Shown: positions 1-27,264, numbered from the stretch's first letter. The stretch: 64,000 nucleotides of DNA from a virus (IMGVR_UViG_2684623229_000001:1-64000); one strand, 5' to 3'. Notes: generated by a model not told the origin, from the sequence alone. Translations and numbers: made by a program.

Positions 1-255
1 CTATTTAAAAATGTTATGTTGAATTGCATAAAAAAAGAAGCTTACCAAAGCTCCTACTGATAATCCTATATACCATTTTAAAACAGATACAAGTTGTTTT
101 AATTGATCACAAAGGTTCTCAATTTTAGTATCTATTTTAGATTGATTTTGTTCTATCTTATCAATTCTTTTCCCATGATCATTAAGTCTAATATCATGTA
201 CATTAATTTTTTCTTCTAGTCTTTTATGTTTTTCTTCACAAACTTTTAACTCCAC
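1..255 (-). CDS. XhlA-family holin-like/haemolysin lysis protein
   Basis: 84 aa; N-terminal coiled coil plus one C-terminal TM helix (WYIGLSVGALVSFFFYAI); follows tail genes; GGAGG RBS. Confidence 0.75.
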   Translation of the reverse strand: MELKVCEEKHKRLEEKINVHDIRLNDHGKRIDKIEQNQSKIDTKIENLCDQLKQLVSVLKWYIGLSVGALVSFFFYAIQHNIFK

Positions 256-326
256 ATTATACCTCCATTAAATAAAACACATCTTTTGTATATACTTTTA
301 ATCTATAGCCTTTTTTCTTATATTAC

Positions 327-371
327 AAAAAAATTAGAGCAATAGAAATAATATCTCTGCTCTAATTTTTT
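327..371 (-). terminator. Intrinsic terminator-like hairpin after the adhesin array
   Basis: AAAAAATTAGAGCA...TGCTCTAATTTTTT inverted repeat with A/T tails. Confidence 0.6.
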
Positions 372-410
372 ACAATAAAAAAAGACCTATTATGGTCATC
401 TAATTTATCT

Positions 411-1415
411 TTATTTAGTTTTACACATTGTTAACTTAAATTGATCATCACATAAATCTAGTATTTTATAATCATTACAATTGTATTTGATGGATTTATT
501 ATTCTCATCTGTATCAACTAATTCAATATTATCTATAACTTCATTAATATCTAATTGAAAATCAGTTTTCCAAATATCATTTTCATCTTTAGTCATAGGA
601 AATTCTTTATTATTCAAATTTTGGGTTATTATATTTACATCATCTGCACCATATTTATTGTACCAATTTTCTAATTGAATATTATCTGTAGGTTGTCCAA
701 GATTAATAAAGTTTGATTTAGTTGAATAATAATTTTTATTTTGATTAATTAAATATTTTTTATTTGTAAACTCTATTACTTCATTATATATTTCTAAATT
801 ATCTAACGAACCTTTTAAATAATATTCTTTTGAGTCTGCTAATCCACCTATAGAAAAATTTCTATTATAATAAGAAATATTTTCATGAGTTAATTTTGGC
901 ATTTGTTCAACTGGATTTATTAAATCATCGATATATATTTTAGCTATATTATTATCAAAAGTTAATAATATATCATGCCACTTACTATCTATTAAACTGC
1001 ACTTATATTTTAGATCAAATACAACTTGCCAAGAACTATCTTGTTTTCCAGAAGCAAACCTTATTTCTTGTGTATCCCTTAAATAAGAACACTGTAAGCT
1101 TGCACTGTTTTTATAATTATCATTTCCTACATAAAAAATGACATTCTGATTTTTAATTAAATCATTTTGTAGTTTTATTCTAAATTTAACACTCTTCTTT
1201 CCTAACGGTATTATTGAATTATTAAAATTAATATAATCAGATTCACCATTAAAATTTCTAGCATTACCATCTATTCCAATAATACTTGTTGTACCAACAT
1301 AAATACCATTATATTTTCCTGTACCGTCTGTACAAGTATTGCCACTTGTTTCTTCAAATTTATATTGTGCTACTAAGTTATGGCCATAATCTTTTTTAGG
1401 TATATATTTTTCCAC
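411..1415 (-). CDS. LamG/concanavalin-like domain + C-terminal module D (putative receptor-binding subunit)
   Basis: LVAQYKFEETSG...WHDILLTFD...GSLDNLEIYN LamG-like signature; C-terminal ~115 aa homologous to 4789..5595. Confidence 0.75.
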   Translation of the reverse strand: MEKYIPKKDYGHNLVAQYKFEETSGNTCTDGTGKYNGIYVGTTSIIGIDGNARNFNGESDYINFNNSIIPLGKKSVKFRIKLQNDLIKNQNVIFYVGNDNYKNSASLQCSYLRDTQEIRFASGKQDSSWQVVFDLKYKCSLIDSKWHDILLTFDNNIAKIYIDDLINPVEQMPKLTHENISYYNRNFSIGGLADSKEYYLKGSLDNLEIYNEVIEFTNKKYLINQNKNYYSTKSNFINLGQPTDNIQLENWYNKYGADDVNIITQNLNNKEFPMTKDENDIWKTDFQLDINEVIDNIELVDTDENNKSIKYNCNDYKILDLCDDQFKLTMCKTK

Positions 1416-1480
1416 TATATCACTTCCAATCTATATCTTAAAATGATTTTCTTTAAAATGAATATTTTACATTACCTTCA

Positions 1481-2824
1481 TTATTCTCTCATTAACACTT
1501 CAAATTTGCCATTATTAATTTCTTTAATTTTATCTGATATTTTATAATTATTACAACCATATTCAATGTACTTTTTATAATTTTCTTCTATTAGATTTAT
1601 GTTATTCTTTATATCATTTAGATTAATATCAAAAGATTTGTAATAATCTTTTTCTAGCTTTGTAGGTATTTTTTTATTATTTAATTCTTTAGTAAGTATA
1701 GATAAATCATTATAACCATATTCATCTATTAAATTATCTAATTCTTCATTATTATCTATCTCTCCTAAATCTATATAATTATTATTTATTGAGTAATAGT
1801 TATTATTTTGTTTTATTAAATATTTTAAAACCCTCCACTCCCAATTAGCATTATAAATATCATATGGTTTATATCCTACATCTACTAATTTATTCCATGT
1901 ACTTTTATTAGAACTAACAATATTAAATGGAGTTGCTCCGAAATTTGCTGTTATAGTTCCACCTTTATTTTCTCCATTATTATTTATCATAATGACAGTA
2001 TATACTTCATTCTCTAATGTAATTGTATAATTTGTATCTAATATACCATTAATATAAAAATTTATAATATGATTATCTAAATCAAAAGCCATTCCTATAA
2101 ATGTATTTTTCATAGCATTAATTACACAAGTTTTAATATTACTTGGAAATTGAGATATAGAAGTATACCCTGATAAACTAGCTTCATAAGTAGCCAAACC
2201 TAATGTACATACATTGGGCATATCATTTACTAAAAATTCTGCATAAAACTTACCATTAGTAATAAACTTTGTTGCTTTTATCCCATGATATTCATAGGGA
2301 GGAGTTTTTGAAAGAGAAGCTGTTAAATTATTATTACTTAAGGTATAATTAGTTGTTTTATCATTAGGACTCCATGTTATTATTGATGATAAATTAGGAT
2401 TATAAGGCTTCAACTTTCCATTTTCGTCTATGTCTATTGAATCTAAACCAAACCATCCATACTGATTATCCGTTTTTCTTTCAATATATATTTCAGCACT
2501 ATATTCTTTAAAACTAGGCATTTCTTTTTCAAAAACTAATACTAATGAAGCAGGCGTGATTGGATATATATACTCCACATAACTATAAACAATATTATTT
2601 ATTTTTATTTTAACATCTTTTGAATGACTATTATTCGTAAATACTAATATTCTTATTTTACTTCCAACAAAATTAAAACATATTTTATCTCCTACTGTAT
2701 TTGAATAATGAGAATCATAATCTGTTTTCCATTCATTTCCGATGTAGCTGATGTTTTTATCAGTATCATCATACCTTATCCATCCACTTTCAGGTTGCAA
2801 TAATTGTTCTCCTATTGTAGCCAC
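1481..2824 (-). CDS. PESGW domain + SPRY-like domain + C-terminal module C (putative receptor-binding subunit)
   Basis: N-terminus shared with 3811..4518; LSNNNL...GKFYAEF...IGMAFDLD...FYING...ANFGATPF SPRY-like; C-terminus homologous to 5649..6446. Confidence 0.75.
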   Translation of the reverse strand: MATIGEQLLQPESGWIRYDDTDKNISYIGNEWKTDYDSHYSNTVGDKICFNFVGSKIRILVFTNNSHSKDVKIKINNIVYSYVEYIYPITPASLVLVFEKEMPSFKEYSAEIYIERKTDNQYGWFGLDSIDIDENGKLKPYNPNLSSIITWSPNDKTTNYTLSNNNLTASLSKTPPYEYHGIKATKFITNGKFYAEFLVNDMPNVCTLGLATYEASLSGYTSISQFPSNIKTCVINAMKNTFIGMAFDLDNHIINFYINGILDTNYTITLENEVYTVIMINNNGENKGGTITANFGATPFNIVSSNKSTWNKLVDVGYKPYDIYNANWEWRVLKYLIKQNNNYYSINNNYIDLGEIDNNEELDNLIDEYGYNDLSILTKELNNKKIPTKLEKDYYKSFDINLNDIKNNINLIEENYKKYIEYGCNNYKISDKIKEINNGKFEVLMRE

Positions 2825-2837
2825 TTTATATCACCTC

Positions 2838-3809
2838 CTACACTTCCCTAAATAATATATTACAAATATAACCATTTTTCTTTAAGTTATCTATTGGTCT
2901 AAAAGGTTCACAATTATAAATCATTTCGCATTCTTTTTTTTCTAAATCATCTGTATATACAAGTAATTTAATTCCTTCTAAATTTTCAAATTTACTTAAT
3001 AATAAATCTTTAGTTATTTTACTAATATCACTAAATCCATTACTATTAAAATTATTTTCATCTAATGTTTGTAATGAAGCTTGTACTAAATTGCTCTCAT
3101 TTAATGTATATAAATTATTGTTTTTATCTTGAATTAGATATTTATTTGCTGTAAATTCTATAGCTTCATTATATATTTCTATTTCATCAAGAGAACCGTT
3201 AAAAAAGTAAGGTGGAAGACTTGGATTTCCTGTTTTACCAACAAACAAATTATAACTTGCATTTGTCGTCTCTATTACTAATGGTGTTCCTGCAACATCC
3301 TCATTTATTAAATCATCTATATAAATTTTTGCTGAATTTGTACTTGTAGTACCATCCCAAGTAAATAATACAGTATGCCACTCGCCATCACAAACTGTCT
3401 TATTTGAAGATAACAATAGATTATATGTTCCTGGTGTGCCTTTACTAATATTTACATATACTCCTTTTGAATCATTGATTGCGAATGAAAATCCATAATT
3501 AGCAGTAGCTCCCCCACTATTATTTATAATAAATCCGAATGAAGTTGTTGTTGTTTTTATTTTAAATTTAATACTTTTCTTGCCTATAGGTATTACTTGA
3601 TTACTAAATGTTATATACTCATTTGTGCCGTTAAAAGTTCTATAAGTGTTACTTATTCCTTGTGCTATATCAGTAACGTTAGTAGTACCTATATATGTTC
3701 CGTTATAAGTACCTTTTGAATCTAAACATACTGTACCACTTGTTTCATTAAATTTATAATCTGCTACTAAACTAGCTAAATAATCTTTTTTAGGATAATA
3801 TTTTGCCAT
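2838..3809 (-). CDS. LamG/concanavalin-like domain + C-terminal module B
   Basis: N-terminus paralogous to 411..1415 (PKKDY...YKF.ETSG...DGEWHTVLFTWDG...GSLDEIEIYN); ends PFRPID.LKKN..ICNILF.EV like 6459..7169. Confidence 0.75.
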   Translation of the reverse strand: MAKYYPKKDYLASLVADYKFNETSGTVCLDSKGTYNGTYIGTTNVTDIAQGISNTYRTFNGTNEYITFSNQVIPIGKKSIKFKIKTTTTSFGFIINNSGGATANYGFSFAINDSKGVYVNISKGTPGTYNLLLSSNKTVCDGEWHTVLFTWDGTTSTNSAKIYIDDLINEDVAGTPLVIETTNASYNLFVGKTGNPSLPPYFFNGSLDEIEIYNEAIEFTANKYLIQDKNNNLYTLNESNLVQASLQTLDENNFNSNGFSDISKITKDLLLSKFENLEGIKLLVYTDDLEKKECEMIYNCEPFRPIDNLKKNGYICNILFREV

Positions 3810-3810
3810 C

Positions 3811-4518
3811 TTATTTCACCTCACTTATACTCATAAAATCATTACCAAAAGGTATCTCAAATAACTTACCACTACCTAGATTCCCCTTATCTATACCATT
3901 AATGATTTGTGTATTGATAGTTTCAGTTAATAAATTTAAATCATCTATACCAAAAGTTCCAAAATCAGTTTGATTTAATATTTCTTTTCCTTCTAATTCT
4001 GTAATGGATTCATAATTGCCATTTTTATAAAATTCGGATTTTATTGTATAATAATTATTATTTTGTTTTATAAGATATTTATATAAATTAGGATTATAAG
4101 GTTTCAATTCTCCATTTTCATCTATATCTATTGCATCAAAGTCATATTCTTTATTTTCTGTGTTTATTACTTTTATATGATGTTCTTTATATTTTAGATT
4201 TTGTTTTTGAAATTGTAATATCTGAGTACCACTTCCTATCTTTCCATTTAATATATATATTACATTATCAATAATAATTTTAACATTCTCAGAATAAGCA
4301 TTGCTTGTTGAATTGTTTTGCCCAATAATTCTTATTTTATCTCCAGTAAAATTAAATCTTAATTCTCCATTTGTCTGAATATAAGAAGCCGTTGTTTTAT
4401 AATATGAAGCATAATTCGTATGTATCCAATCTCCAATATAACTTATATTACTATCGGTGTCATCATATCGTTTCCATCTACTTTCGGGTTGTAATAATTG
4501 TTGTCCTATTTGAGCCAC
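3811..4518 (-). CDS. PESGW domain + C-terminal module A
   Basis: QLLQPESRWKRYDDTD N-terminus; C-terminus YYTIKSEFYKN...GIDDLNLLT...GKLFEI shared with 7185..7973. Confidence 0.7.
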   Translation of the reverse strand: MAQIGQQLLQPESRWKRYDDTDSNISYIGDWIHTNYASYYKTTASYIQTNGELRFNFTGDKIRIIGQNNSTSNAYSENVKIIIDNVIYILNGKIGSGTQILQFQKQNLKYKEHHIKVINTENKEYDFDAIDIDENGELKPYNPNLYKYLIKQNNNYYTIKSEFYKNGNYESITELEGKEILNQTDFGTFGIDDLNLLTETINTQIINGIDKGNLGSGKLFEIPFGNDFMSISEVK

Positions 4519-4531
4519 CTTATATCACCTC

Positions 4532-4785
4532 CTATACTTCCTTAAATAATATATTACAAATATCACTATTTTTCTTTAATTTATCTATTGGTCTAAACTC
4601 CTCGTCATTAACAATTCTTTTTTCAGTATTATCTACCAAATACCTCTTACTATCTTATAATTTTGTATCAATTGATGCAGGAGAATAGGTTATTGTATTA
4701 TATGAGACTCCATAAAAATTAAATTTGAAGTATTCATCCATGCTCCTGCATAACTTATATTAATATCTTTAATAGTCCTTTTCTG
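4532..4785 (-). pseudogene. Decayed array member (PESGW-type fragments + end of module B)
   Basis: Manual - strand translation gives DINISYAGAW, a frame change to FKFNFYG, a stop, then ...FRPIDKLKKNSDICNILFKEV*, matching the end of 6459..7169. Confidence 0.65.
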
Positions 4786-4788
4786 TAT

Positions 4789-5595
4789 CTATTTTTCCCT
4801 ATACTGCATGATGTCAAATTCATCATCACATAAATCTAGTATTCTATAATTATTGCAATCATATTTAATAGATTTATTATTCTCATTTATATCAACCAAG
4901 TCAATATTATCCGTAACATCATTAATGTCTAATTGAAAATCAGTTTTCCATATTCCATTTTCATTTTTAGACATGGGAAACTCTTTATTATTTAGATTTT
5001 GAGTTATGATATTTACATCACCTGAACCATATTTGTTATACCAATTTTCTAATTGAATATTATCTATAGGTTGTCCAAGATTTAAGAAATTAGAATTAGT
5101 TGAATAATAATTTTTATTTTGATTTATTAGATATTTTTTAAATATATACGGATTATATTTTTTTATAATTCCGTTGTCGGCTATGTCTACTATATCAAAA
5201 GATATATATCCTTCATCTGTGCCGAAATGTTCTATAATTATTGAGTGTTCTTTATTATCCCAAATAGGACTTTCGTAATAACATGCATGACCATTTACTT
5301 GCCCTAAAGGAGAACTATGCTTTATAGTTACACCATCTATAATTATATTTAGATTCATATTTCTCCCTTCAGTAGTATAAATTTGGTTAAGTAATCTAAA
5401 TTGCTTACCTATGATATTAAATTTTACTGCTGAATATTTTGTTAAATCTTGTGAAAAATGTACATCTCCTAAGTAGAAATTAGTTTTATCTGAATATACT
5501 TTTTTACTCATATTAATATATTCAAAATTTTCATTATCATTATTTATTCTATTCCAGCCTTGTTCCGGAACTAGATAAACATTTCCCAATGCCAT
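4789..5595 (-). CDS. Divergent PESGW domain + C-terminal module D
   Basis: PEQGWNRIN...KEHSIII...FDIVDIADNGIIKKYNP; C-terminus highly similar to 411..1415. Confidence 0.7.
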   Translation of the reverse strand: MALGNVYLVPEQGWNRINNDNENFEYINMSKKVYSDKTNFYLGDVHFSQDLTKYSAVKFNIIGKQFRLLNQIYTTEGRNMNLNIIIDGVTIKHSSPLGQVNGHACYYESPIWDNKEHSIIIEHFGTDEGYISFDIVDIADNGIIKKYNPYIFKKYLINQNKNYYSTNSNFLNLGQPIDNIQLENWYNKYGSGDVNIITQNLNNKEFPMSKNENGIWKTDFQLDINDVTDNIDLVDINENNKSIKYDCNNYRILDLCDDEFDIMQYREK

Positions 5596-5648
5596 AGTAC
5601 ATCACTTCCAATTCTATTTAAAATGAATATTTTATATCGTTCTCATTA

Positions 5649-6446
5649 TTATTCTTTCATTAACACTTCAAATTTAGCATTATTGATTTCTTTAATTTTA
5701 TCTGATATTTTATAATTATTGCAGCCATATTCAATATATTTTTTATCATCTTCTTCTATAAGATTTATACTAGCTTTTACATCATTTAGATTAACATCAA
5801 AAGACTTATAATAATCATTTTCTAGCTTTGTAGGTATTCTTTTAGTATTTAATTCTTTAGTAATAATTGATAAATCATCATAACCAGAATTGTTTATTAA
5901 ATTATATAATTCTTCATTGTTATCTATCTTTCCTAAATCTATATAGTTATTATTTATTGAATAGCAATTATTATTTTGTTTTATCAAATAAAGTAATTCT
6001 TCATCAAAAAACTGTATTTGATTTATTGCTAACCAATCTGTTGAATGTAATTCTAAAAACTCTATCTTTAAAAATCTATATTTTTTAGTAGGATTTTTAT
6101 ACGCATATTCATTAATTTCATTATTATTTTTTATATTATCTATAACATCTATTTCTATATAGTCTATGCCATTGTTACTCATTGATATTTTTATCTTCTT
6201 AGGTAAATATGATATATCATTTCCTTGTATACTTATTTTTGAAGGACTTACTGGATTAATAAAATCTATCTTTAGCCATTCTGTATTATTAGGATATTGT
6301 ATTTGAAATCCATCATAACTAGTACATGTAATATGATTATCAAAAGAAAGATATGGTATATATTGTTTTCTTCCAGTATGGTATCTTGATGATGTAAAAT
6401 TTTCTTGTTTTAAATTATCTGTTAAGTCATTTGACCATTTTCCCAT
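5649..6446 (-). CDS. Discoidin (F5/8 type C)-like domain + C-terminal module C
   Basis: EWLKIDF...PKKIKISMSNNG...KYRFLKI...AINQIQFF discoidin signature; C-terminus highly similar to 1481..2824. Confidence 0.75.
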   Translation of the reverse strand: MGKWSNDLTDNLKQENFTSSRYHTGRKQYIPYLSFDNHITCTSYDGFQIQYPNNTEWLKIDFINPVSPSKISIQGNDISYLPKKIKISMSNNGIDYIEIDVIDNIKNNNEINEYAYKNPTKKYRFLKIEFLELHSTDWLAINQIQFFDEELLYLIKQNNNCYSINNNYIDLGKIDNNEELYNLINNSGYDDLSIITKELNTKRIPTKLENDYYKSFDVNLNDVKASINLIEEDDKKYIEYGCNNYKISDKIKEINNAKFEVLMKE

Positions 6447-6458
6447 ATATACACCCTC

Positions 6459-7169
6459 CTATACTTCCTTAAATAATATATTACAAATATCACTATTCTT
6501 CTTTAATTTATCTATTGGCCTAAAAGGAATTATTTCTGTTTCTAAACTGACATCAGTTTTATTCATATCATCTGTCCACATTAGAAGTTTAAGATTAGAC
6601 TTATCTGGAAAAGCAATATTCAATTGTTCTTCTCCAATTACTGTCGCATCTATAAAACCATTATTTATAAAATTATTTTCATCTAATTCTTGTGAAGGTG
6701 ATAAGACTATATCTGTACCATTAAATGTATATAGCTGAGATTTATATTGAAATAATATAAACTTTTCTAAAACAATTGGATTGATTAATATTGGTAAATC
6801 GAGATTAGCTTCAGCATTATAAGATACTGACATAGCTACTATTTTTAAAACTTTCATTTTCTGTATTGTATCTAGATTAAATGTTTTTTGCCATACATTA
6901 TTATTAGGAAAACTATAAGTTGAATGCTCAATAAAATTTATACCATCTAATGAATATAAAATTTTAAACTTTGTGACATTACAGTAGTCTAAAGTCCAAC
7001 TAGGATACCCAGATGATAACTTAATTGATTCCAAACAAAAATAATTATTATTTTTGTTAATTATTGTAAAATAACCTTTTGTATTTTTTTGTTGTATACC
7101 TCTATATTTGCCTTGGTATATACTATCATAATTAAATATATAATCATTATTTATACTACATTGAGACAA
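6459..7169 (-). CDS. Discoidin-like domain + C-terminal module B
   Basis: VTKFKILYSLDGINF motif; C-terminus shared with 2838..3809. Confidence 0.65.
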   Translation of the reverse strand: MSQCSINNDYIFNYDSIYQGKYRGIQQKNTKGYFTIINKNNNYFCLESIKLSSGYPSWTLDYCNVTKFKILYSLDGINFIEHSTYSFPNNNVWQKTFNLDTIQKMKVLKIVAMSVSYNAEANLDLPILINPIVLEKFILFQYKSQLYTFNGTDIVLSPSQELDENNFINNGFIDATVIGEEQLNIAFPDKSNLKLLMWTDDMNKTDVSLETEIIPFRPIDKLKKNSDICNILFKEV

Positions 7170-7184
7170 TTAAATCATCCCCTT

Positions 7185-7973
7185 CTATTTTATATCTATA
7201 TTATCTATTTTTTTAAACTCATTATTAAGTCTAATTTCAAACAACTTCCCATTACCTAATTCCTCTTTATCGATTCCATTAATAATTTGAGTATCTATAG
7301 TTTTAGTTAATAAATTCAAATCATCTATACCATAAGTTTCAAAATCGGTTTGTGTTAATGTTTCTTTTCCTTCTAATTTATTAATAGGAACAACTTGCTC
7401 ATTTTTATAAAATTCAGATTTTATTGTATAATAATTTGATTTTTGTTTGATTAAAAATAAGCTATTAATATTCAATTTATCATATCCATTTGGCTTATTA
7501 TATTTAAAAGGTTTTTCTCCAAAGTTAACTATTAACTCTTGCAATTTTGAACCTTTAAATACAAGAATTTCTAAATATAATTCTGAATTATTTAAATTAG
7601 TAGATCGAACACCTTCAGATATTCCATTTTTATAAAACTCTAATGTTCCGTTATTAATGGTACTATCATATAAAATACCTATTGTATCTCCAATTTTCCA
7701 AGCTTCTCCGTAACCATTACCATCACTCCAATAACTATTACCTATATTATAATTAGTTAAACTAGTATCCTTTTTAGCTAAAGCAATGATACTATTATTA
7801 GCATTAAAGCTATTTATATAAATTTCAATATATATCTTTTGTTTTTGGGTTTTATTTACTGGTAATGTTGAACGAACACCTTGCCAACTAGTCAATACTG
7901 ATGTAACACTTCGATTATTATTTGATAACTGTACAGTTCCCATATCATTTGGATTTAAATAGTATGCATTCAT
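7185..7973 (-). CDS. SPRY-like domain + C-terminal module A
   Basis: LSNNN...GDTIGILYD...LEFYKNG...VNFGEKPFKY SPRY signature; C-terminus shared with 3811..4518. Confidence 0.75.
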   Translation of the reverse strand: MNAYYLNPNDMGTVQLSNNNRSVTSVLTSWQGVRSTLPVNKTQKQKIYIEIYINSFNANNSIIALAKKDTSLTNYNIGNSYWSDGNGYGEAWKIGDTIGILYDSTINNGTLEFYKNGISEGVRSTNLNNSELYLEILVFKGSKLQELIVNFGEKPFKYNKPNGYDKLNINSLFLIKQKSNYYTIKSEFYKNEQVVPINKLEGKETLTQTDFETYGIDDLNLLTKTIDTQIINGIDKEELGNGKLFEIRLNNEFKKIDNIDIK

Positions 7974-9147: not shown

Positions 9148-9158
9148 TAAGCCACCTC

Positions 9159-17815: not shown

Positions 17816-17818
17816 CTC

Positions 17819-19234: not shown

Positions 19235-19297
19235 CTCCCACCTTTGGGAATAAAAAGTTTTCTAACTTCATTTAAATAATAATTTAAATTTAAAAAT

Positions 19298-19540
19298 CTA
19301 TTTTCTATTATTAGCATTTAACCATTGAATCACATCTTCATTATTAGCTTTATTTATTCTATCTCCATCTATAAACTTAGGCTCTCTAGCATCTTCTTTA
19401 CTAATCTCATTTAATATATAAACGCAGGCCTCATCAAAACAAAAAGCCTCATAATCATTAGTCAACCCTATAATTTCACTGGGCCTTTGTCTATATTGTT
19501 TACTTATTGATATTACACTCAGTATTCTCTGACTCTTCAC
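19298..19540 (-). CDS. Tail assembly chaperone, frameshift extension (GT-like)
   Basis: Overlaps 19500..19916 in the +1 frame from TTT_CGT; homologous to 55704..55958. Confidence 0.7.
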   Translation of the reverse strand: MKSQRILSVISISKQYRQRPSEIIGLTNDYEAFCFDEACVYILNEISKEDAREPKFIDGDRINKANNEDVIQWLNANNRK

Positions 19541-19916
19541 GAAAGGAGTCTAATTCACTTACACCTTCCTGTGTATAATTAAACAATGCTACTATTTGTT
19601 CATCTGTAAGCTCTAATCCTACACTTTTTAAATCTTCTATGGAAGGTTCTACAAGTGCATTTTCGGCCATAATATACATAACATCTGTCATTTGTGCTAA
19701 ATCAACATTCTCTTTTGAACTCTGTTTACCATAAAATAGTTCCTCTGCTGCACTTAATAATTTGTTAGGCACTACTCCTTTTCTTACCAAATTTAAAAGA
19801 GATACTCTTTTAACTCTAGCATTAAAAGGTATCCCTTGGCTAAATTGTGGCAACTGAATTACTTCATCTTGAGCTGCTTTTTTTAAATCTTCTATATTAG
19901 TTACCTTTAAATCCAT
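19500..19916 (-). CDS. Tail assembly chaperone (G-like)
   Basis: Between tail tube and TMP; homologous to 55870..56289. Confidence 0.75.
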   Translation of the reverse strand: MDLKVTNIEDLKKAAQDEVIQLPQFSQGIPFNARVKRVSLLNLVRKGVVPNKLLSAAEELFYGKQSSKENVDLAQMTDVMYIMAENALVEPSIEDLKSVGLELTDEQIVALFNYTQEGVSELDSFREESENTECNINK

Positions 19917-19931
19917 TTTATTATCCCCTCA

Positions 19932-20819
19932 CTATCTAATCTTTATTGTTTTAAATTCTGTGGATAATGCTGTGGTTTTACCACTTCCATCTAATTTGTT
20001 TATTTCTTTAGCTTCAGCAATATAAACTGTATCTATTGCTAAAGAATCAGGTACAAATGTTACTATTTTCTTAGTATCATCTATAGTTACATTTCCATTT
20101 ACTCTAGAATTATCAGATTTTCTCTTTATAATAAAGTTTTCTAGGTTAACATCATCTTGATTAATTTTATTTGAAAAACTCCACACTACCCTGTTAGTTA
20201 TACTTACCCCTACATCTGGATTTTTATTTTCTACTTCTCCACCTTCTACTCCTATATCTTCAATTGGAGTAGATTCTCCTGGCTTTTCTCCATTATTATT
20301 CTCTTGTAATTTATTTAAAAATTCTATTTCTACAGGTTTCTCATTTCTAAATGGTATACTTTCAGCCTCATATGAAGACACTAAGAATTTTCCATCTTGA
20401 ATTTTATATTTAGCTGGCTTACCTTTACAATGCTTATACACGAATTTAACATAGCCTGTGGTTCTAGAATAGTCTTTTTCTTCTGTGAATATTTCCATAG
20501 TGAATGGATGTCTTTCTACTGCTATACCTACTTCTGTTCCACAATATTTATTATCTTGTATAGTTCCTCCATCTATTAAAGCCATAGTTTCTATATTAAA
20601 TAGATTGTCCTTCATTTTTAACTTGTAACCTATAACAATATCATCTGTTTCATTTATTCCATAAATTTTATTTTTAATCCTTAATATATCTCTTTTGCCC
20701 TTACTGTTTATAGGTTCTATATCTATTTCATTGCTTGTTTCTATTGTATGTTTTGTATTTGTTACCTCATCAATAAAATTAACTTTCACAACATTAACTA
20801 AAGTTTTTCCGCTTGTCAT
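19932..20819 (-). CDS. Major tail tube protein with C-terminal Ig-like (Big_5-like) domain
   Basis: N-terminal ~170 aa homologous to 56347..56973; C-terminal P...VS.T..V.W.FS..I...VTFVP..L...TVY Ig-like motif. Confidence 0.75.
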   Translation of the reverse strand: MTSGKTLVNVVKVNFIDEVTNTKHTIETSNEIDIEPINSKGKRDILRIKNKIYGINETDDIVIGYKLKMKDNLFNIETMALIDGGTIQDNKYCGTEVGIAVERHPFTMEIFTEEKDYSRTTGYVKFVYKHCKGKPAKYKIQDGKFLVSSYEAESIPFRNEKPVEIEFLNKLQENNNGEKPGESTPIEDIGVEGGEVENKNPDVGVSITNRVVWSFSNKINQDDVNLENFIIKRKSDNSRVNGNVTIDDTKKIVTFVPDSLAIDTVYIAEAKEINKLDGSGKTTALSTEFKTIKIR

Positions 20820-20823
20820 TAAA

Positions 20824-21243
20824 TTACCTCCTTAAACTTTTAAATTGTTGATATTCTATGCTTGTAGTGTAAGCTTGTACATCGTAATCTATAACGCTTG
20901 GTGTTTCATTCCCTGTAGGCCTAAGATCTTCTATTTTTTTTAAAGCTTCTTTTATATTCTCTACATAAAATTCTATAGTGGAATATTGATCCATAGGGCT
21001 ATAGACTATAATATCAAATAGTTTATAACCAGATATATTTCCAACTAAGGCATGTACACCATTTTCCTTTATAACTACATAGCTTTCTGTACATTTGTTT
21101 CTCTTTTGTCCAGGAGCATACACATTATATCCTAATTTTTTTAAATATAAATATACCTTTTGCCATAAAGTTTCTGGTATAACATTATTAATTATATCTT
21201 GCTGTATGCAATCCCCTGGAACCTTGTAATTAAATTTAGACAT
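20824..21243 (-). CDS. Tail terminator-like protein
   Basis: Synteny; resembles 56977..57315 (C.E.YVV.K, L..TG..TP..ID). Confidence 0.6.
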   Translation of the reverse strand: MSKFNYKVPGDCIQQDIINNVIPETLWQKVYLYLKKLGYNVYAPGQKRNKCTESYVVIKENGVHALVGNISGYKLFDIIVYSPMDQYSTIEFYVENIKEALKKIEDLRPTGNETPSVIDYDVQAYTTSIEYQQFKSLRR

Positions 21244-21248
21244 TTACA

Positions 21249-21596
21249 TCACTTCCCAAATAAATTACTCATCCCCTTAAGTATTTGTGGACTCAGTTTA
21301 TCTATAGTTGGTTTTAATATTGCATATTTTTTATCATTACATAACTCTAAAGACGGATAGTAATCCTCATTTCCAGTAATATAAATATTACACCTATCGC
21401 CTTTCCACTGTTTTCCACCTTTAATTGTTTCAATATCCATATCTAATTGATCCTTCCAAGGTGCATTCTTTTTAGCATCTTCTTCTAGCTTCTTTGCGGC
21501 AATATCTGCATACCCACTTATAGCAGTTTTAGATTGCATCTCAAATTCAGATAATCCATCAATAACACTATCTATATTTACTTCAAATTCCCTCAT
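21249..21596 (-). CDS. HK97 gp10-like neck/tail completion protein
   Basis: AKKNAPW.D and LELCNDKKYAIL, homologous to 57317..57691. Confidence 0.7.
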   Translation of the reverse strand: MREFEVNIDSVIDGLSEFEMQSKTAISGYADIAAKKLEEDAKKNAPWKDQLDMDIETIKGGKQWKGDRCNIYITGNEDYYPSLELCNDKKYAILKPTIDKLSPQILKGMSNLFGK

Positions 21597-21600
21597 ATCA

Positions 21601-21966
21601 TCACACCCTGTTTAATATCATATCAAATACTAGGTTTTGAATATTTCCTGTGTCAACTATTTCATACTTAGTTCCATCTAATATAAAATAATCATCCTTT
21701 TGTATTTTAGAGCTTATATCATTATAGATAATTAATAATTTATCATTATATAAATTATTAAATTCCAGTCCTTCCATAGAAGTTGTAATTATATTACTAT
21801 TATTTCTATAATAATATCCCCTTATAGTGCATACATACACTTCATCTAGTTTTTCTTCAAAAGCATTTTTACCTATTCTTAATATTTTTATTTCTCTTAA
21901 TAAGTCTTTTTTTTCTAGATGTTCATATATATTTTTACTTATTTTTGCCCTATTTATATTATTCAT
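21601..21966 (-). CDS. Head-closure-like protein
   Basis: Synteny; I...DYF..DG.KY.IV motif shared with 57684..58052. Confidence 0.55.
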   Translation of the reverse strand: MNNINRAKISKNIYEHLEKKDLLREIKILRIGKNAFEEKLDEVYVCTIRGYYYRNNSNIITTSMEGLEFNNLYNDKLLIIYNDISSKIQKDDYFILDGTKYEIVDTGNIQNLVFDMILNRV

Positions 21967-22250
21967 TAATGTTCATCAACTCTTTCCATAGAAGTTTGAT
22001 TCTTTAGAATCTTTTGCTCTTCTTTGAAATGCTCTGCTAGAGTTAACCAATAGGCTCTATTACTTTGTAACTTTATATCTGCAACTTCTATTCCATCATC
22101 TGCAATTGCTTTTAGAATACACCCTTTATAACTTGCTTTTTCTACATCATTATTATTGATTTCTAGTAGCAATTCTAGCTCTTTATCCTCAAAATAAGGA
22201 TACTGTTTTTCTTGTAAATTAAATTTCAAAATCTCTAAAGGTGTTCTCAC
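21966..22250 (-). CDS. Head-tail adaptor-like protein
   Basis: TPLEILKFNLQEKQYPYFE closely matches 58049..58357. Confidence 0.7.
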   Translation of the reverse strand: MRTPLEILKFNLQEKQYPYFEDKELELLLEINNNDVEKASYKGCILKAIADDGIEVADIKLQSNRAYWLTLAEHFKEEQKILKNQTSMERVDEH

Positions 22251-22689
22251 TTTTTCTCACCTTCCTTAGTTAAATTTTATTTGTTTAAGGTTACTAATTT
22301 TTCTGCAAATATTTTCAATAATAGTTTAATCATTTATTTAGTCAGTCTATTACATAACCTCAAATCATCCTCATTATGATAAATTATTGAATATAGCTCA
22401 CCTCCTATGCTTACTGTACAACCTTTAAGTTTTCTTGAAATGAATAAGCATTAGATTTTATAAAAGCCTTAATTTATAACTTTATTTATAAGAAGTTATA
22501 AGAATTAAAACTTATTTTGCAAATCTAATGCATTATTTACGAATAATAAAATTTTTAGTTCAAATTATTCAGTTTTTTAGCTTACTCTTAAAAGCTGTAA
22601 ATTTTAATTTGATTTCATAATATTCATTTATTTTTTAATGAATACTTTACAGTTGTTTTATATAATAAAACCTCTGCTATTTTTATAAT

Positions 22690-22750
22690 ACTATTATATT
22701 TCATTTGAATACTTTATTTATCCCAACTTTGTCTCATTTTTGTCCCAAAA
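22690..22750 (-). promoter_or_regulatory. Putative activator-dependent late promoter
   Basis: TGGGACA/TGAGACA/TGGGATA direct repeats about one helical turn apart upstream of TATAAT (22693-22698), just downstream of the ArpU-like gene. Confidence 0.5.
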
Positions 22751-22760
22751 TATTTTTATC

Positions 22761-22938
22761 AGATGACTACCCGCTCTAATACTCCCATCTTTTTCAAAGT
22801 GAGAGTAAAGAGCGGGTACGTCCCTGGATAACGATTTCCCCTAAAGGATAACGACTTCTAAGGAGTAAAACTCCTAAGAATTCTGTTAATAAGCTTTAGA
22901 GGGAGTAAAAACTCCCTCTGAAGCCAAGAACTCTGTTT
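22761..22938. repeat. Multi-hairpin interspersed (REP/MITE-like) clostridial repeat
   Basis: Hairpins TACCCGCTCT..AGAGCGGGTA, AGGAGT-AAA-ACTCCT and AGAGGGAGT-AAAA-ACTCCCTCT; GGATAACGA duplicated; GC-richer than flanks. Confidence 0.55.
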
Positions 22939-23458
22939 ATACTATAAGGTTATTCAATTGTGCTACATGTTCTACTAATTCATTCTTTTTTCTATAAGCT
23001 GTACTCCTTGCTCTTCCAAACATTTCTACGGCTATCCAATCTACACTTTTATTTTCTCCATACTTCAACTCTATAAATTTTTTATTTTCTTCATTTAGTG
23101 ATGAAATATTATCTTCCATTACTGATATTTCTTCTTCTATTTCTCTTATTTTATATTCTACTTTCCCTTTCTTCTTAATTTTTTCTCCTAGTTCTATCTC
23201 TAATCTTTCTATTTGTCTTATTAGCTCTTTCTCTGCATAGCCTGTTCCATTGCTAGAGGTTTGTACTATTTCATCATATGTTCTACTTCTAGACTCTTCT
23301 TCTAATGTTACATCATTATTTTTAATTTTATCCATTATAATTTCTATTCTATTAGAAAGATGCTTGGCTCTATTTTTTAGCTTATTCAATTCTTTTTTAC
23401 TTCTAAAATGCCTATATAATCTTTCTTCTGTTTTTATATATAATTTTTTATCCAACAT
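22937..23458 (-). CDS. ArpU/RinA-family late transcriptional activator
   Basis: KTEERLY..F N-terminus, coiled coil, C-terminal HTH (FIELKYG...IAVEM...RSTAYRKK); last early gene before the structural operon. Confidence 0.7.
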   Translation of the reverse strand: MLDKKLYIKTEERLYRHFRSKKELNKLKNRAKHLSNRIEIIMDKIKNNDVTLEEESRSRTYDEIVQTSSNGTGYAEKELIRQIERLEIELGEKIKKKGKVEYKIREIEEEISVMEDNISSLNEENKKFIELKYGENKSVDWIAVEMFGRARSTAYRKKNELVEHVAQLNNLIV

Positions 23459-23630
23459 ATCTAACCTCCTATAATAATTCTTTAATATATTTTCTTATAA
23501 CTATAATGTTACTTTTTGATATCTTTAAAGGCCTTTAGAAATGCCTTTTGGTTTGAATTTTATATACTTTTTTACATTTCTTTATTATTTTTATTTAACT
23601 CATATATCATTATTTCTTTTCCCACAATAT

Positions 23631-23882
23631 CTAAAAATCTTTTATTGTAAAGTAATGCTTAACCACTTCGTCCGTCCATCTATTTTTTGCAACTCTTAAA
23701 AATTCTAATTCCTCTTGGCATTTGTCTAATAAATTTATGCTTTCCTTTAATAATTTCTCATAATCTATGCTTTTCTTTACATACTCCTTTAATAAAATCT
23801 TTAATACTGCATTTTCTTTTCTAAATGACTCTATCTCTTCAAAAACTTTATTTTCTATTTCTTTAACTAATACAATTGACAT
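23631..23882 (-). CDS. Hypothetical coiled-coil phage protein
   Basis: 83 aa with GGAGG RBS. Confidence 0.55.
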   Translation of the reverse strand: MSIVLVKEIENKVFEEIESFRKENAVLKILLKEYVKKSIDYEKLLKESINLLDKCQEELEFLRVAKNRWTDEVVKHYFTIKDF

Positions 23883-23938
23883 CTTATACCTCCATCATAC
23901 TTAATTTTCTATTATATTACTAAAGACAATCAATATTC

Positions 23939-24787
23939 TTATTTCAATAATTCTTTTAATATTTCTGTTTTCTCTTTAGCTTTTTCTTCCCTTATATTTT
24001 TACCATCATTTAAAATAGGAGTACACATTTCTAAAATTCTATAGTATGTCCTCTTTTCATATCTATTTTTAAGTTCTATAAGAGATAAATTTGTTGTAAT
24101 TATAAGTGGTAATCCATTCCTATATCTACTATCTAAAATATTATAGATTTTAGTTCTAGTCCATTCTGTATCCTGTTCTGTTCCCAAATCATCTATTATC
24201 AATAGATCTGCATTATCTAATCCTCTCAATATATCTTCTTCTACTTCTTTTCCAGATTTTTTATATGTGTCTTTAATTCTATTTAATAAGCTATCTGCAT
24301 TTACACATATAACTGGTAACATTTTCTCTATAAGAAAGTTTGCTATACATGCCACAGTATAGGTTTTACCATTTCCCGGAGAACCATATAATAAAAGTCC
24401 TACAGATTCTTTTTTCATGTTTTCAAATTTTTTAGTATATTTATTAGCTATTTTATACATTTTGTCATTACCTTTAGTAAAATCCCAATTTTTAAATTTA
24501 CTATTTCTAAATTTTTCATCTATTAAACTATTTTTAATAATCTTTTTTAATCTTAATTGCTTTTCTTTATTTATTTTTTCTTTCTCTTTTGCCATTAGAG
24601 CTTCTCTTTTGCACTTGCACATTACAGGACCTTTTATATACCTATTTAACCCTGGAATATAAGTAATCTTTTCAATAGCTTCTCCACATACAGAACATAT
24701 TTCAACTCTTTCATTTTCACCAGTAATATTATAATCCAATTCCCTGCTTTTTAAGGTCTTCTCCAAAGCTTGTCCTACTTGTTTCAT
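23939..24787 (-). CDS. DnaC/IstB-like AAA+ helicase loader
   Basis: CxxC...CxC Zn site, Walker A GSPGNGKT, Walker B LLIIDDLG, RY....PLIITTN. Confidence 0.9.
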   Translation of the reverse strand: MKQVGQALEKTLKSRELDYNITGENERVEICSVCGEAIEKITYIPGLNRYIKGPVMCKCKREALMAKEKEKINKEKQLRLKKIIKNSLIDEKFRNSKFKNWDFTKGNDKMYKIANKYTKKFENMKKESVGLLLYGSPGNGKTYTVACIANFLIEKMLPVICVNADSLLNRIKDTYKKSGKEVEEDILRGLDNADLLIIDDLGTEQDTEWTRTKIYNILDSRYRNGLPLIITTNLSLIELKNRYEKRTYYRILEMCTPILNDGKNIREEKAKEKTEILKELLK

Positions 24788-25610
24788 ATACCTCGCCTTC
24801 TCTCCATTTCTTACTTATCTCGTTTCTCTTTACATCTTGTGGTAATTTATATCCTTTATTTATCCAGCTTTCCAAGATTGACATTGTATATTTAAATCCT
24901 TTTATTTTGCCCTGTTCCTGTTCTCTTTTTTTTGTAATATCTAATGCATATATTAATAAATCAGTATAATCTTCTTTAGCCATGACTTTTAATACTTGAT
25001 TTAAATAAGTGGCACTTATTTGCCTATAAAAGGTATTAAAATATGCTTCATTAATTTTATCTAAATTTTTTCTAATATCACTCTTTCTATCTTCTTTTAT
25101 TTCTATATATATATCTTCTATATCTATATCTCTGCCGTTACTTAACGTTTCATGTAACATTATATTTTTTTTATTGTCATTATTTTTGCAACTTTGTTTT
25201 TTAGTTTCTTCTAATAGTTCTTTTTTCTTAGCTCTATGTTTAGCTACCCTTTCCCTTGTTTGTTGTCTAACTTTCTCCATACCTTCTATATTTTGATGTT
25301 TGGACCAGTTAGCTATTTTTATTAATTTATCTTCTTGTATCTGTATCATGCCAAAATCTCTAAGTACTTTTAATGCAAACCTTAAACTATTTAATGGCCT
25401 ATTAAAAATTGTACTTAACATTTCTTCTGTATATGGAACATTATCATTTAGAAAAATATATCCATTTGAATTTGTTTTACCTGCTTGAACTAAAAGTCTC
25501 ATCCAAATATAATGAACAGTATCTCTTTCTGGCATAGCATCTATTAATTTTATTTTTTCGTCATCAAACATATTTGTTGTTATCTTTATCCACTTAACTT
25601 CTGCCAACAT
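24729..25610 (-). CDS. Phage replisome organiser (replication initiator)
   Basis: VKWIKITTNMFDDEKIKLI...PYTEEMLSTIF...NWSKHQN signature; DnaD-like C-terminus (Y..SILESW...G). Confidence 0.85.
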   Translation of the reverse strand: MLAEVKWIKITTNMFDDEKIKLIDAMPERDTVHYIWMRLLVQAGKTNSNGYIFLNDNVPYTEEMLSTIFNRPLNSLRFALKVLRDFGMIQIQEDKLIKIANWSKHQNIEGMEKVRQQTRERVAKHRAKKKELLEETKKQSCKNNDNKKNIMLHETLSNGRDIDIEDIYIEIKEDRKSDIRKNLDKINEAYFNTFYRQISATYLNQVLKVMAKEDYTDLLIYALDITKKREQEQGKIKGFKYTMSILESWINKGYKLPQDVKRNEISKKWREGEVYETSRTSFGEDLKKQGIGL

Positions 25611-25727
25611 ATCACCACTTTCTTTTTTATCCATAGTATACAAAATAAAATATTGCTATAATTAAATCAATCCATAATTTATATATAGTTTTTCTATACT
25701 TCTTTAATAATTATTGATTTACTATGT

Positions 25728-25940
25728 TTACCACCACCTCCATAGTTCTTGATCTATCAATTCATTAGGTGTAATTTTCAATATTTTGCATAGATTACAA
25801 ATAACCTTTAGCCCTGGATTTTCATATTTACCTTCCTCTAATTCTGTAATATAACTTCTAGCTATTTTACTTTTGTAACTCAATTTTGAAATAGATAAGT
25901 TTCTTATTCTTCTATATTCTTTTGTTTTTATTACTGCCAC
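25728..25940 (-). CDS. XRE-family HTH regulator
   Basis: LSISKLS...IARSYITELEEGK..NPGL. Confidence 0.8.
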   Translation of the reverse strand: MAVIKTKEYRRIRNLSISKLSYKSKIARSYITELEEGKYENPGLKVICNLCKILKITPNELIDQELWRWW

Positions 25941-25994
25941 TTGAGGATTCCTCCTTAGGATTTATTCCTCTCAATATTAAACTATAAATTTTTA

Positions 25995-26342
25995 AGTATT
26001 CCTAAAGTTGACCATTTCTTTTAAAAAAAAGTTCGTCTATGGTAGTATCAAAAAAATCTGATATAATCTTAGCCTCATTTAAAGTAAAAGACTTCTTACC
26101 ATTTTCTTTAAAATTATAAGTATTTAGAGATACCCCTATTAGTCTTGCTATATCCTCTTGCTTTGCTCCTCTTAAGCATCTATAAGCTTTTAATTTTTTT
26201 TCTGTTGTCATAAAGCTCACCCCTTAATAACTATTTTTAAGTAAACTATAAGAATACTATTTATATTTTTATTATAGTCAACATTAAGAATACTTTCAAC
26301 TGTATTTTATCATTTTTCTGAAAAAATATTCTTATAGTTTAC
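25995..26342. promoter_or_regulatory. Genetic switch: four 18-bp operator-like repeats and a sigmaA promoter for cro
   Basis: GT(A/C)AACnnTA(A/G)GAATA(C/T)T at 26241-26258 (+), 26277-26294 (+), 26325-26342 (-), 25995-26012 (-); TTGAAA-17-TATAAT on - strand (26299-26271). Confidence 0.7.
26002..26220 (-). CDS. Cro-like XRE HTH regulator
   Basis: QEDIARLIGVSLNTYNFKENGK; divergent from the repressor. Confidence 0.85.
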   Translation of the reverse strand: MSFMTTEKKLKAYRCLRGAKQEDIARLIGVSLNTYNFKENGKKSFTLNEAKIISDFFDTTIDELFFKRNGQL

Positions 26343-26393
26343 ATTAGTTTTAAAAAGTCAACATATGGTTTATAATATAGTATAAATAGAGGG

Positions 26394-26813
26394 GTGAAAA
26401 AGTTGGCAGAAATAAAAGATAGGTTAAAATGTGAAAGATTAAGAAAAGATTTAAATCAAACTGAATTGGCAAAATTTTTAAATGTATCAAAACAAACAGT
26501 TTCCAATTGGGAAAATGGTAACAGAATTCCTGATACCCTTACCTTATCTAAGTTAGCTGACTTCTTTAATTGCTCCGTAGATTATATTTTAGGAAGATCT
26601 GAAAATAGAAATGGCATAATTTCTAAAGCTAATATAGATGGAAGTAATTACGAATTTGAATTAGATAAGAGTATATTTCCAAATGGCATAACTAGAGAAC
26701 AAATGATAAATTATATTAAGGAACTAGAAGATAGAAATAAAGAATTAGAAAAAGAAGCTGAGATATCTAGAAAATTAAAAGAAGCTGGCTTCGATTTCAA
26801 TCCCGATAAATAA
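26394..26813 (+). CDS. CI-like XRE repressor without S24 peptidase domain
   Basis: LNQTELAKFLNVSKQTVSNWENGNRIPD...SVDYILGRS; divergent from the lytic genes. Confidence 0.85.
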   Translation: MKKLAEIKDRLKCERLRKDLNQTELAKFLNVSKQTVSNWENGNRIPDTLTLSKLADFFNCSVDYILGRSENRNGIISKANIDGSNYEFELDKSIFPNGITREQMINYIKELEDRNKELEKEAEISRKLKEAGFDFNPDK

Positions 26814-27043
26814 AATATTCTAAAAATTAATTATTTAAAATTAAAATACAAATATGCAAAACTAACAAATATATATGTATTCATGATGTTATGTTTATAA
26901 TTACATGAAATTCGTATATGTTTGTTAGTTTTTTATTTTGTCTAAAAAAGTAAATACTTGTCCTAAAATTCTGTATACAGACAATTACATTTTCAAAATA
27001 AATATGTAATAATTTTCACATAAAGTAATTTAATTATATAAAC

Positions 27044-27090
27044 TTGCAAATTTTATTAAAAGATATTAAAATATACTTGAACACATGTTC
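27044..27090 (+). promoter_or_regulatory. sigmaA promoter with LexA/DinR (SOS) box
   Basis: TTGCAA-17-TAAAAT (27044-27072) followed by GAAC-ACAT-GTTC (27079-27090), matching the Firmicute GAAC-N4-GTTC box. Confidence 0.75.
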
Positions 27091-27114
27091 GATTTGAGAA
27101 AGGAGTCTTAATTT

Positions 27115-27264
27115 ATGTTTAATTTTAGTGGGGTATTAAGTATAAAAAAAGAAGGGGAAATAATATATGAAAAAAAAGATACCTTTACACTGAATAGAAA
27201 AAAAACTTCTTGTGAAAAATCTTCTAAGGATAAAATACAATTAGTGCAGAAGGTTAATACATAA
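27115..27264 (+). CDS. 49-aa SOS-regulated small protein (candidate antirepressor)
   Basis: Not in the ORF track; AAGGAG RBS; MFNFSGVLSIKKEGEIIYEKKDTFTLNRKKTSCEKSSKDKIQLVQKVNT. Confidence 0.6.
   Translation: MFNFSGVLSIKKEGEIIYEKKDTFTLNRKKTSCEKSSKDKIQLVQKVNT

Follow-up and report, generated by a model that had tools for sequence, protein, structure and literature searches.

In the 64,000-nucleotide stretch of viral DNA IMGVR_UViG_2684623229_000001:1-64000 (the window; positions are counted from its first letter), a prophage-like gene cluster, here called element A, occupies the region from position 1 to ~27.3 kb. Its sequence suggests that element A is probably a domesticated F-type tailocin-like element of the Clostridium botulinum Group I / C. 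sporogenes lineage, and that it probably represents a grounded siphovirus prophage stripped of its integrase, terminase, portal, scaffold, and capsid genes. This reading fits best with what was observed, namely the gene content, in which no head genes were found, the fixed chromosomal locus, purifying selection, wide spread, and the presence of the genes in RNA sequencing (RNA-seq) assemblies. A preliminary description of the same DNA had proposed an F-type tailocin-like particle; it is borne out with respect to the headless and sheathless gene content, locus, selection, spread, and RNA contigs, whereas the particles and the killing are still predictions.

Gene content and tail genes of element A

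Nearly all genes of element A lie on the minus strand (its genes named below are on this strand unless stated otherwise), and the G+C content is ~22-33% across the window. An open reading frame (ORF) map and scans of 34 proteins against PHROG, Pfam, and NCBIfam confirmed the gene order given in the preliminary description. In the direction of transcription, a cI/Cro-type switch is followed by replication genes, a RinA-like activator, a 686-bp gap, and the neck, tube, and chaperone genes, and then by genes for a tape measure protein (TMP), Dit-like and hub-like proteins, eight structural proteins, eight lectin-like proteins, and XhlA. None of the 34 proteins matched a sheath, terminase, portal, capsid, or integrase family in PHROG or Pfam, in agreement with the lack of a sheath reported earlier. 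Moreover, the integrase and the head and packaging proteins of the closest complete phage, the C. tetani prophage phiCT19406A / phiCTC2A (NC_030950), had no tblastn match in 1-27.9 kb of the window, and neither terS, nor a pac or cos function, nor an integrase was found in element A by family scans and tblastn. Capsid, portal, and terminase genes were likewise not found in the element of three relatives, i.e., genomes G005 and G006 and C. botulinum ATCC 25763 (L002). Thus, of the genes and sites that mark a temperate prophage, an integrase, two att sites, terminase, portal, scaffold, and major capsid were not found in element A.

In contrast to the head genes, a sheathless siphovirus-type tail set is present. 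The major tail tube protein (19932-20819; phrog_6686, 6.5e-112), which has a C-terminal Ig-like domain (Big_5), is 75% identical to the tube protein of phiCT19406A. Two overlapping ORFs are at the position of the tail assembly chaperones (19298-19916; phrog_6280, 5e-56, and phrog_6541, 2e-31); no slippery site was recognised in the overlap, and the families at this position are common to element A and to a second prophage of the window, prophage B. The TMP (17819-19234) matched 22 TMP families of PHROG (best 1e-29). It is followed by a distal tail (Dit-like) protein (17372-17815; phrog_18785, 5e-78; phrog_33 Dit, 2.5e-4), a baseplate hub / Tal-like protein (16300-17385; phrog_1887 tail protein, 3e-37; a weak YQBQ-like match), and distal tail/baseplate genes for proteins of 361, 335, 84, 631, 412, 340, 449, and 116 amino acids (8062-16296; PHROG matches of 1e-41 to 1e-243), which are colinear with gp51-gp58 of phiCT19406A at 55-81% identity (tblastn).

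The length of a tail follows from that of its TMP at ~0.15 nm per residue. By this rule, the 471-amino-acid TMP of the window would give a tail of ~70 nm, as was estimated before; the estimate applies to the window, whereas the TMP of G005, G006, and L002 has 517 amino acids (~78 nm) and that of phiCT19406A has 681 (~100 nm). Scaled from the Listeria monocin, for which the accessible part of a published report gives 22 rings for a 622-residue TMP (PMC11830787), the tail of the window would have ~17 tube rings.

Eight receptor-binding-like genes with LamG, SPRY, and discoidin heads (411-7973; Pfam) form two copies of a four-gene cassette that differ in their lectin-like heads. The C-terminal modules of the cassette pairs come in the same order (262/235 amino acids, 68%; 236/323, 45%; 265/447, 83%; 268/334, 79%). 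This region is hypervariable, with eight genes in the window and three in G005 and G006. Within the window, element A ends with a gene for an XhlA-type lysis protein (1-255; PF10779, 1e-23; phrog_1193). In G005 and G006, XhlA is adjoined by a holin and an Amidase_3/SH3 endolysin, and then by aroC, so that an endolysin, for which a look to the left of the window had been proposed, is found there in these relatives.

As a separate observation, the 449-amino-acid baseplate protein (14582-15931) carries a C-terminal caspase domain (PF00656, 1.5e-17). Its N-terminal 182 amino acids are 75% identical to gp52 of phiCT19406A, the caspase domain having been gained by the gp52 homologue. The ratio of nonsynonymous to synonymous substitution rates (dN/dS) of the gene is 0.09-0.16, and some strains have short or split forms of the protein of 181-231 amino acids. 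When translated, the domain shows SGHG and DTCHSG motifs, which we take to be its putative catalytic pair.

Chromosomal locus, selection, and transcription

Element A occupies the same chromosomal site in related genomes. In G005, the left border consists of XhlA, holin, and endolysin followed by aroC, polA, and coaE, and the right border consists of tRNA-Leu(CAA) followed by aspS and hisS. The headless junction and both neighbours (aroC/polA; tRNA-Leu(CAA)/aspS/hisS) are common to G005 and G006, and L002 has this junction too, together with the tRNA-Leu(CAA) side, the flank covered by the comparison. The deletion junction is identical in all four genomes (the window, L002, G005, and G006). 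A whole tRNA-Leu(CAA) lies directly to the right of the cI-like gene in L002, G005, and G006, whereas the window holds only the 3′ 61 nt of this tRNA (27829-27889, minus strand; 100% identical to bases 27-87 of the tRNA of these three genomes), indicating that a later insertion of >36 kb (27890 to beyond 64000) split the tRNA gene. ARAGORN found no tRNA in the window, and in Rfam the fragment was the only weak match near element A, scored as a tmRNA. The claim that no integrase precedes a tRNA site therefore holds for the integrase, for which PHROG, Pfam, and tblastn searches gave nothing, but the tRNA site is represented only by this fragment, which lies outside the region then described. The end coordinate of that region agrees with the point (27270-27280) up to which G005 and G006 are homologous to the window.

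The sequences flanking the element point to descent rather than to recent arrival. The identity between G005 and G006 is 93% in the element core and 90.7-92.4% in the flanking core genes; the element diverges about as its flanks do, which fits descent together with the chromosome. A second copy of the tRNA 3′ end was not found at the far side of the element in G005 or G006. Stop-to-stop frames at 27284-27562 (plus strand) that resembled the N-terminus of an integrase were not supported as a remnant of one: their four fragments matched no Pfam family at E up to 5, and the phage tblastn matches had E values of at least 0.6.

In G005 and G006, none of the 26 comparable genes (the cI-like gene through the gene for the 361-amino-acid protein, plus XhlA) is interrupted, and their dN/dS is 0.04-0.39 (Nei-Gojobori); this agrees with the intact structural ORFs described earlier. 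The eight receptor-binding-like genes were excluded from this calculation, their best matches in G005 and G006 not being orthologues. The structural genes make up ~17 kb; they remain unbroken, at dN/dS of 0.07-0.36, in genomes that are ~7-10% diverged and, as the headless junction is shared, these substitutions postdate the loss of the head genes. The exact tube sequence occurs on 157 contigs. Its cluster at 90% identity contains 44 sequences, and for the 15 listed ones at least 581 contigs bear the name C. botulinum (among them the Kyoto, Okra, and Langeland records) or C. sporogenes. Element A is widespread in C. botulinum / C. sporogenes records. Sporadic distribution with neutral decay, which the preliminary description had set against its own proposal, is the opposite of the fixed locus, intact genes, purifying selection, and wide spread found here. 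The features that mark an element kept by its host, i.e., a fixed locus, vertical descent, purifying selection, and lack of an integrase, are thus all seen in element A.

Public RNA-seq assemblies of relatives (~95% identical) were compared with positions 8000-27900 of the window. In runs X17 (organism F) and X19 (organism E), which come from two studies, one 11.1-kb contig corresponds to 13463-22783 and spans the late operon from the gene for the 340-amino-acid protein through the adaptor gene plus most of the leader. This contig has a depth of 300.8 (X17) and 379.7 (X19), compared with 4.7-58 for contigs of the early genes and 293 and 113 for those of the cI-like gene, with the reservation that such contigs give no ends, strand, or true levels, and that DNA can be present in an RNA library. 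Simple carry-over of DNA is made less likely by how unequal the depths of adjacent contigs are. In runs X15 and X16 (one study) the late genes are barely covered; we do not take this as evidence of silence.

The early region begins with the genetic switch (25728-26813; HTH_3 matches of 1e-16/1e-10), which consists of a cI-like repressor gene (26394-26813, plus strand), a cro-like helix-turn-helix (HTH) gene (26002-26220), and a gene for a second HTH protein (25728-25940), with a 22-nt inverted repeat (91%) between the first two (26241-26342). The early operon also contains a replication module (23631-25643), comprising the 915-nt gene of a replisome organiser (24729-25643; PF09681, 5.9e-58), the gene of a DnaC-like loader (23939-24787; phrog_50, 2.5e-69), and an ORF of 83 amino acids identified in the ORF map. 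The dN/dS of the replication genes relative to G005 and G006 is 0.11-0.23. A repeat scan did not demonstrate an origin of replication in element A, its sole yield being an AT-rich repeat of 15 nt in 2.1 copies that lies within the organiser gene (25101-25131). In L002, one nucleotide is missing from the organiser gene (5178-6088) at position 711 of 915, which removes the last ~65 residues, although an assembly error is possible, the sequence being a draft. The frameshift suggests that replication may not be strictly needed.

The RinA-like late activator (22937-23458; phrog_36, 4e-15; TIGR01636, 1e-6, below the family cut-off) is 49% identical to a regulator of phiCT453B whose gene immediately precedes the HNH, terS, terL, and portal genes of that phage. 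The gap between the activator and the adaptor gene is 686 bp (22251-22936) and has no ORF of at least 50 amino acids. The ~690-bp ORF-poor gap of the preliminary description is thus real, but 187 bp of it are an inserted repeat that is absent from the junction in G005 and G006. The candidate late promoter region does lead straight into the head-tail adaptor gene, as had been stated: an untranslated leader of ~440 nt (22251-22692, minus strand), 88-92% identical to its counterparts in G005 and G006 and lying under the RNA contigs, connects the two. Three GGGACAAA-type repeats at 11-bp spacing (22717-22746, minus strand) are followed at a distance of 18 nt by TATAAT (22693-22698). This motif, which lies downstream of the activator both in element A and in phiCT453B, shows no variation among the window, G005, G006, and phiCT453B; in the phage it stands before the terminase/late genes. 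It is unique in the window, with 0 occurrences expected by chance. We read the repeats and TATAAT as a candidate activator-dependent late promoter. A sigma-70 consensus scan of 21900-23600 gave 8 sites versus 10.1 expected.

The inserted 187-nt sequence (22755-22941), located between the activator and the candidate late promoter, is a multi-copy structured repeat with three strong hairpins (fold z of -7.5 and -8.9). Since it is missing at this junction in G005 and G006, it was not part of the ancestral junction. It is present in multiple copies in G005, G006, G008, G009, G018, G032, and other genomes, and all four RNA-seq runs contain it at high abundance in their contigs. No Rfam family reached the gathering score anywhere in the window, this repeat included.

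The gene order suggests how such an element could work. The cI/Cro-type switch would open the early operon, which encodes the two HTH proteins, the replisome organiser, the DnaC-like loader, and the RinA-like activator. The latter would switch on the promoter with the three 11-bp-spaced repeats, yielding a single long late transcript for the neck, tube, chaperones, TMP, Dit, hub, baseplate, and variable receptor-binding proteins. XhlA, holin, and amidase would then lyse the producer, freeing tails of ~70-80 nm that would bind related clostridia through their lectin-like proteins. Particle assembly, release, and killing are what we infer from this gene set, as is any part of the replication genes in the local amplification on induction that was proposed before.

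Neck genes and head-encoding relatives

As searches of Pfam, NCBIfam, and PDB sequences gave nothing significant for the neck proteins, their identities rest on folds, position, and Atlas leads. The 94-amino-acid protein encoded at 21966-22250 was assigned as a portal adaptor by fold match and position. Its model (predicted local distance difference test score (pLDDT) 72.9; 15-sequence alignment) had no Foldseek match at E <=0.001, the five best rows being phage necks. In a VIA structural second look, the best chain was 9gb5_I, named 'gp50 - Portal adaptor protein' of phiCD508 in the PDB, with Z 10.2 and root-mean-square deviation 2.8 over 82 residues (next row, Z 6.2); for helical models a Z near 10 is not decisive alone, and only this look singled out the phiCD508 adaptor. 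The neighbouring gene (21601-21966) encodes a 121-amino-acid protein that a fold match identifies as a stopper / head-closure protein. Its model (pLDDT 81.1; 47 sequences) matched the T1 stopper in Foldseek at 4.9e-4, and also the Douge connector, a gene transfer agent, gp51 of phiCD508, the lambda neck, and gp16 of SPP1; 19 of the 20 top rows are titled as phage-type necks.

Two more neck genes (20824-21596) encode a tail completion/terminator-like protein of 139 amino acids and an HK97 gp10-like protein of 115 amino acids. The Atlas feature matches of the former are 0.95 to 'tail completion', 0.90 to gp17, and 0.89 to terminator, and that of the latter is 0.98 to the HK97 gp10 family, all of them to be taken as leads only. 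The two proteins are 59-73% identical to gp43 and gp44 of phiCT19406A.

In complete phages such as SPP1 and lambda, the portal adaptor and the stopper assemble on the portal of a filled head. In element A, the ratio of nonsynonymous to synonymous differences per site (pN/pS) of the adaptor gene is 0.11-0.12 (binomial p <=2e-5 in three pairwise comparisons, which are non-independent), and that of the stopper gene is 0.27-0.42 (p 0.003-0.03). As judged by the structural models, element A thus retains a predicted portal adaptor and stopper under purifying selection, even though the head genes are gone. In a headless tail, the two proteins could perhaps serve as a proximal cap.

The genome of phiCT19406A is colinear with element A from gp41 (adaptor) via tube, chaperones, TMP, and gp50-gp58 to XhlA, at 31-81% protein identity and ~73-75% DNA identity. 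However, the genes directly upstream of gp41 are those for terS, terL, an SPP1-type portal, a minor head protein, a scaffold, and a major capsid protein, and the phage also has an integrase, att sites, and the longer TMP. Element A, in turn, differs by another early region, the caspase domain on its gp52 homologue, and the expanded receptor-binding array. Among seven tube-related loci in species-representative genomes, five (L004-L008) have complete head modules before the neck genes, and two, L002 and L003 (Clostridium sp. FAM 1755), are occurrences of element A, headless with the junction as in the window. In L005 and L006, a different head is joined to the same stopper and tail, and the adaptor position is occupied by another family, phrog_1161 'head-tail adaptor', which indicates that adaptor and head module move as a unit in this phage group.

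A head-encoding siphovirus-type prophage, prophage B, lies inside the >36-kb insertion (~42-64 kb), ~15 kb from element A. It encodes an SPP1-type portal (62716-63999), a major capsid protein (58623-59699), a tube (56347-56973), and an endolysin (42258-43073), as well as a head morphogenesis protein, a scaffold, a TMP, and cargo genes. The adaptors of the two elements belong to the same PHROG family and are 56% identical, their tubes and chaperones likewise come from matching families, the stoppers are unrelated, and the other two neck proteins are 27-29% identical.

Known systems, alternative explanations, and neighbouring genes

F-type tail particles are known from Pseudomonas, Listeria, Enterococcus, and, recently, one Clostridium. 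In open full-text literature, no F-type element was found described in the C. botulinum Group I / C. sporogenes complex. In gene content, element A resembles the Listeria monocin, which, according to the accessible part of its report (PMC11830787), is likewise a headless Firmicutes chromosomal cluster with regulators, siphovirus-type tail genes, and a holin-lysin cassette. In the monocin, however, the structural genes start at the terminator FtbF, and ftbD/E are regulatory (PMC11830787), whereas element A adds the portal adaptor, the stopper, the HK97 gp10-like gene, the replisome organiser, and the DnaC-like loader. The F-type tailocin of Clostridium histolyticum (NCTC503_02168-02181) shares with element A the terminator, tube, TMP, Dit, hub, receptor-binding, and lysis genes, and its particles were seen by electron microscopy, cryo-electron microscopy, and mass spectrometry (bioRxiv 10.64898/2026.06.17.733002, accessible part). 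The C. histolyticum particles show that the F-type kind exists in clostridia. That cluster differs in having ~14 genes and a duplicated tube gene, the available text mentioning no neck or replication genes (bioRxiv 10.64898/2026.06.17.733002), and as it is outside the seven tube-related loci it is not close kin of element A. Efagins of Enterococcus faecalis are also species-wide, chromosomally fixed, non-contractile, headless, and selective in killing; they are of independent origin, and the accessible part of their description mentions no replication or head-completion genes (bioRxiv 10.64898/2025.12.13.693970).

Several points weigh against element A being a tailocin-like element. Known F-type clusters start at the terminator, and no portal adaptor, stopper, or replication genes are reported in them in the accessible parts of these sources; in element A, such genes would suit a phage-like life better than a pure weapon. 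Prophage B, with a head and an adaptor of the same family, is in the same window. The cI-like repressor has no cleavage domain or partner protease recognisable with Pfam. The window ends at XhlA, the holin and endolysin being known only from G005 and G006, and the RNA evidence consists of assembled contigs of ~95%-identical relatives rather than of the window strain.

The retained neck genes can be explained differently if tails of element A are made to be attached to the DNA-filled heads of other phages, whether these reside in the cell or infect it. The adaptor and stopper would then adapt foreign SPP1-type portals, giving hybrid virions with the host range of the element, and, provided that the DNA of the element is packaged, the replication module would help it to spread. 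The fold-based identities of the two proteins agree with this explanation, and so do the low pN/pS values of their genes after head loss, the movement of the adaptor with the head module in L005 and L006, the portal and the related adaptor of prophage B, and the conserved replication genes. However, we consider it unlikely, as SPP1-type portals do not accompany element A in every genome. G005 (one contig, 99% complete) carries the element and has no SPP1-type portal by phrog_64 or PF05133, its single PF04860 portal being ~700 kb from the element. In G006, the SPP1-type portal is split into two pieces ~1.5 kb apart (C1:178182-180852) and may be interrupted or decaying, and G002 has a B-like portal but not element A. 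Head genes elsewhere, named beforehand as an argument against a headless particle, therefore count in part for the window strain, with the portal and capsid of prophage B, but no SPP1-type portal was found in G005. Moreover, as no terS, pac or cos function, or integrase was found, the element has no visible route to package or move its own DNA, and the stoppers of element A and prophage B are unrelated. Capsid-forming phage-inducible chromosomal islands (cf-PICIs) and related satellites have a switch, their own replication module, an integrase, and packaging functions, in the case of cf-PICIs with capsid genes and no tails, and they rely on parts of another phage. Element A shares with PICI-like satellites an initiator of its own and a switch, but its tails without a capsid are the reverse of their arrangement, and integrase and packaging or capsid-redirecting genes were not found in it. 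It could be a mirror of these satellites, i.e., a tail-only partner of SPP1-type phages such as prophage B, with adaptor and stopper under selection for docking, that retargets virions through its fast-changing receptor-binding array and uses its replication module upon induction to raise the gene dose or its own packaged share; we regard this as doubtful and rank it below head docking in general. A gene transfer agent does not fit either, as the head and packaging genes that it would have were not found in element A.

Element A could also be a cryptic prophage kept for a function other than particles, such as repressor-based immunity to related phages or its lysis cassette, with the tail genes carried along. 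The missing integrase and head genes, the frameshifted initiator gene of one strain (L002), and the cI-like gene, whose RNA contigs are the deepest among those of the early genes (113-293), can be put forward for this, but hitch-hiking does not explain ~17 kb of intact structural genes under purifying selection. The high contig depth of the late operon in assemblies of two studies and the remodelling of the receptor-binding region between genomes, as expected of a recognition device in use, likewise make it improbable, more so than the proposals involving foreign heads. Least credible, and in our opinion very improbable, is the view that element A still moves as a satellite, or is a prophage with a recent deletion, and spreads horizontally into tRNA-Leu(CAA). 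The adjoining tRNA is an active integration site, as the later insertion in the window indicates, and the switch and replication module are satellite-like; yet neither an integrase ORF nor a demonstrable remnant of one is present, the tRNA 3′ end is not repeated at the far side in G005 or G006, the element is as diverged as its flanks, and a single deletion junction is common to four genomes.

Should element A act as such a tailocin-like weapon, it would let strains compete with one another in a lineage that matters to food safety and medicine. To our knowledge, few intermediates between prophage and tailocin are known, and element A may be such an intermediate stage. The selection on adaptor, stopper, and replication genes in a headless cluster poses a puzzle as to what a domesticated tail needs. 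Unexplained inhibition between Group I strains is reported in the accessible part of one study (PMC9611418), and element A, if it kills, could underlie some of it.

The >36-kb insertion next to element A contains further genes. The TMP gene of prophage B is divided between two ORFs (53619-54938 and 47941-52560, minus strand) with an HNH endonuclease ORF (52724-53569) between them, and no Rfam intron family reached the gathering score in the split gene (47941-54938). Adjoining the lysis genes of prophage B, a KwaB-like protein (PF16162, 5.6e-25) and an upstream 200-amino-acid partner (40483-42010, minus strand) look like a Kiwa defence pair. A 789-amino-acid Walker-A protein (28116-30485; phrog_5156) is encoded together with two small membrane ORFs. 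A pair of genes at 33613-37718 (minus strand) resembles clostridial binary toxin genes, encoding a putative 459-amino-acid ADP-ribosyltransferase (PF03496, 6.4e-72, in two stretches) and a 902-amino-acid protein with PA14 and Binary_toxB domains 1-3.

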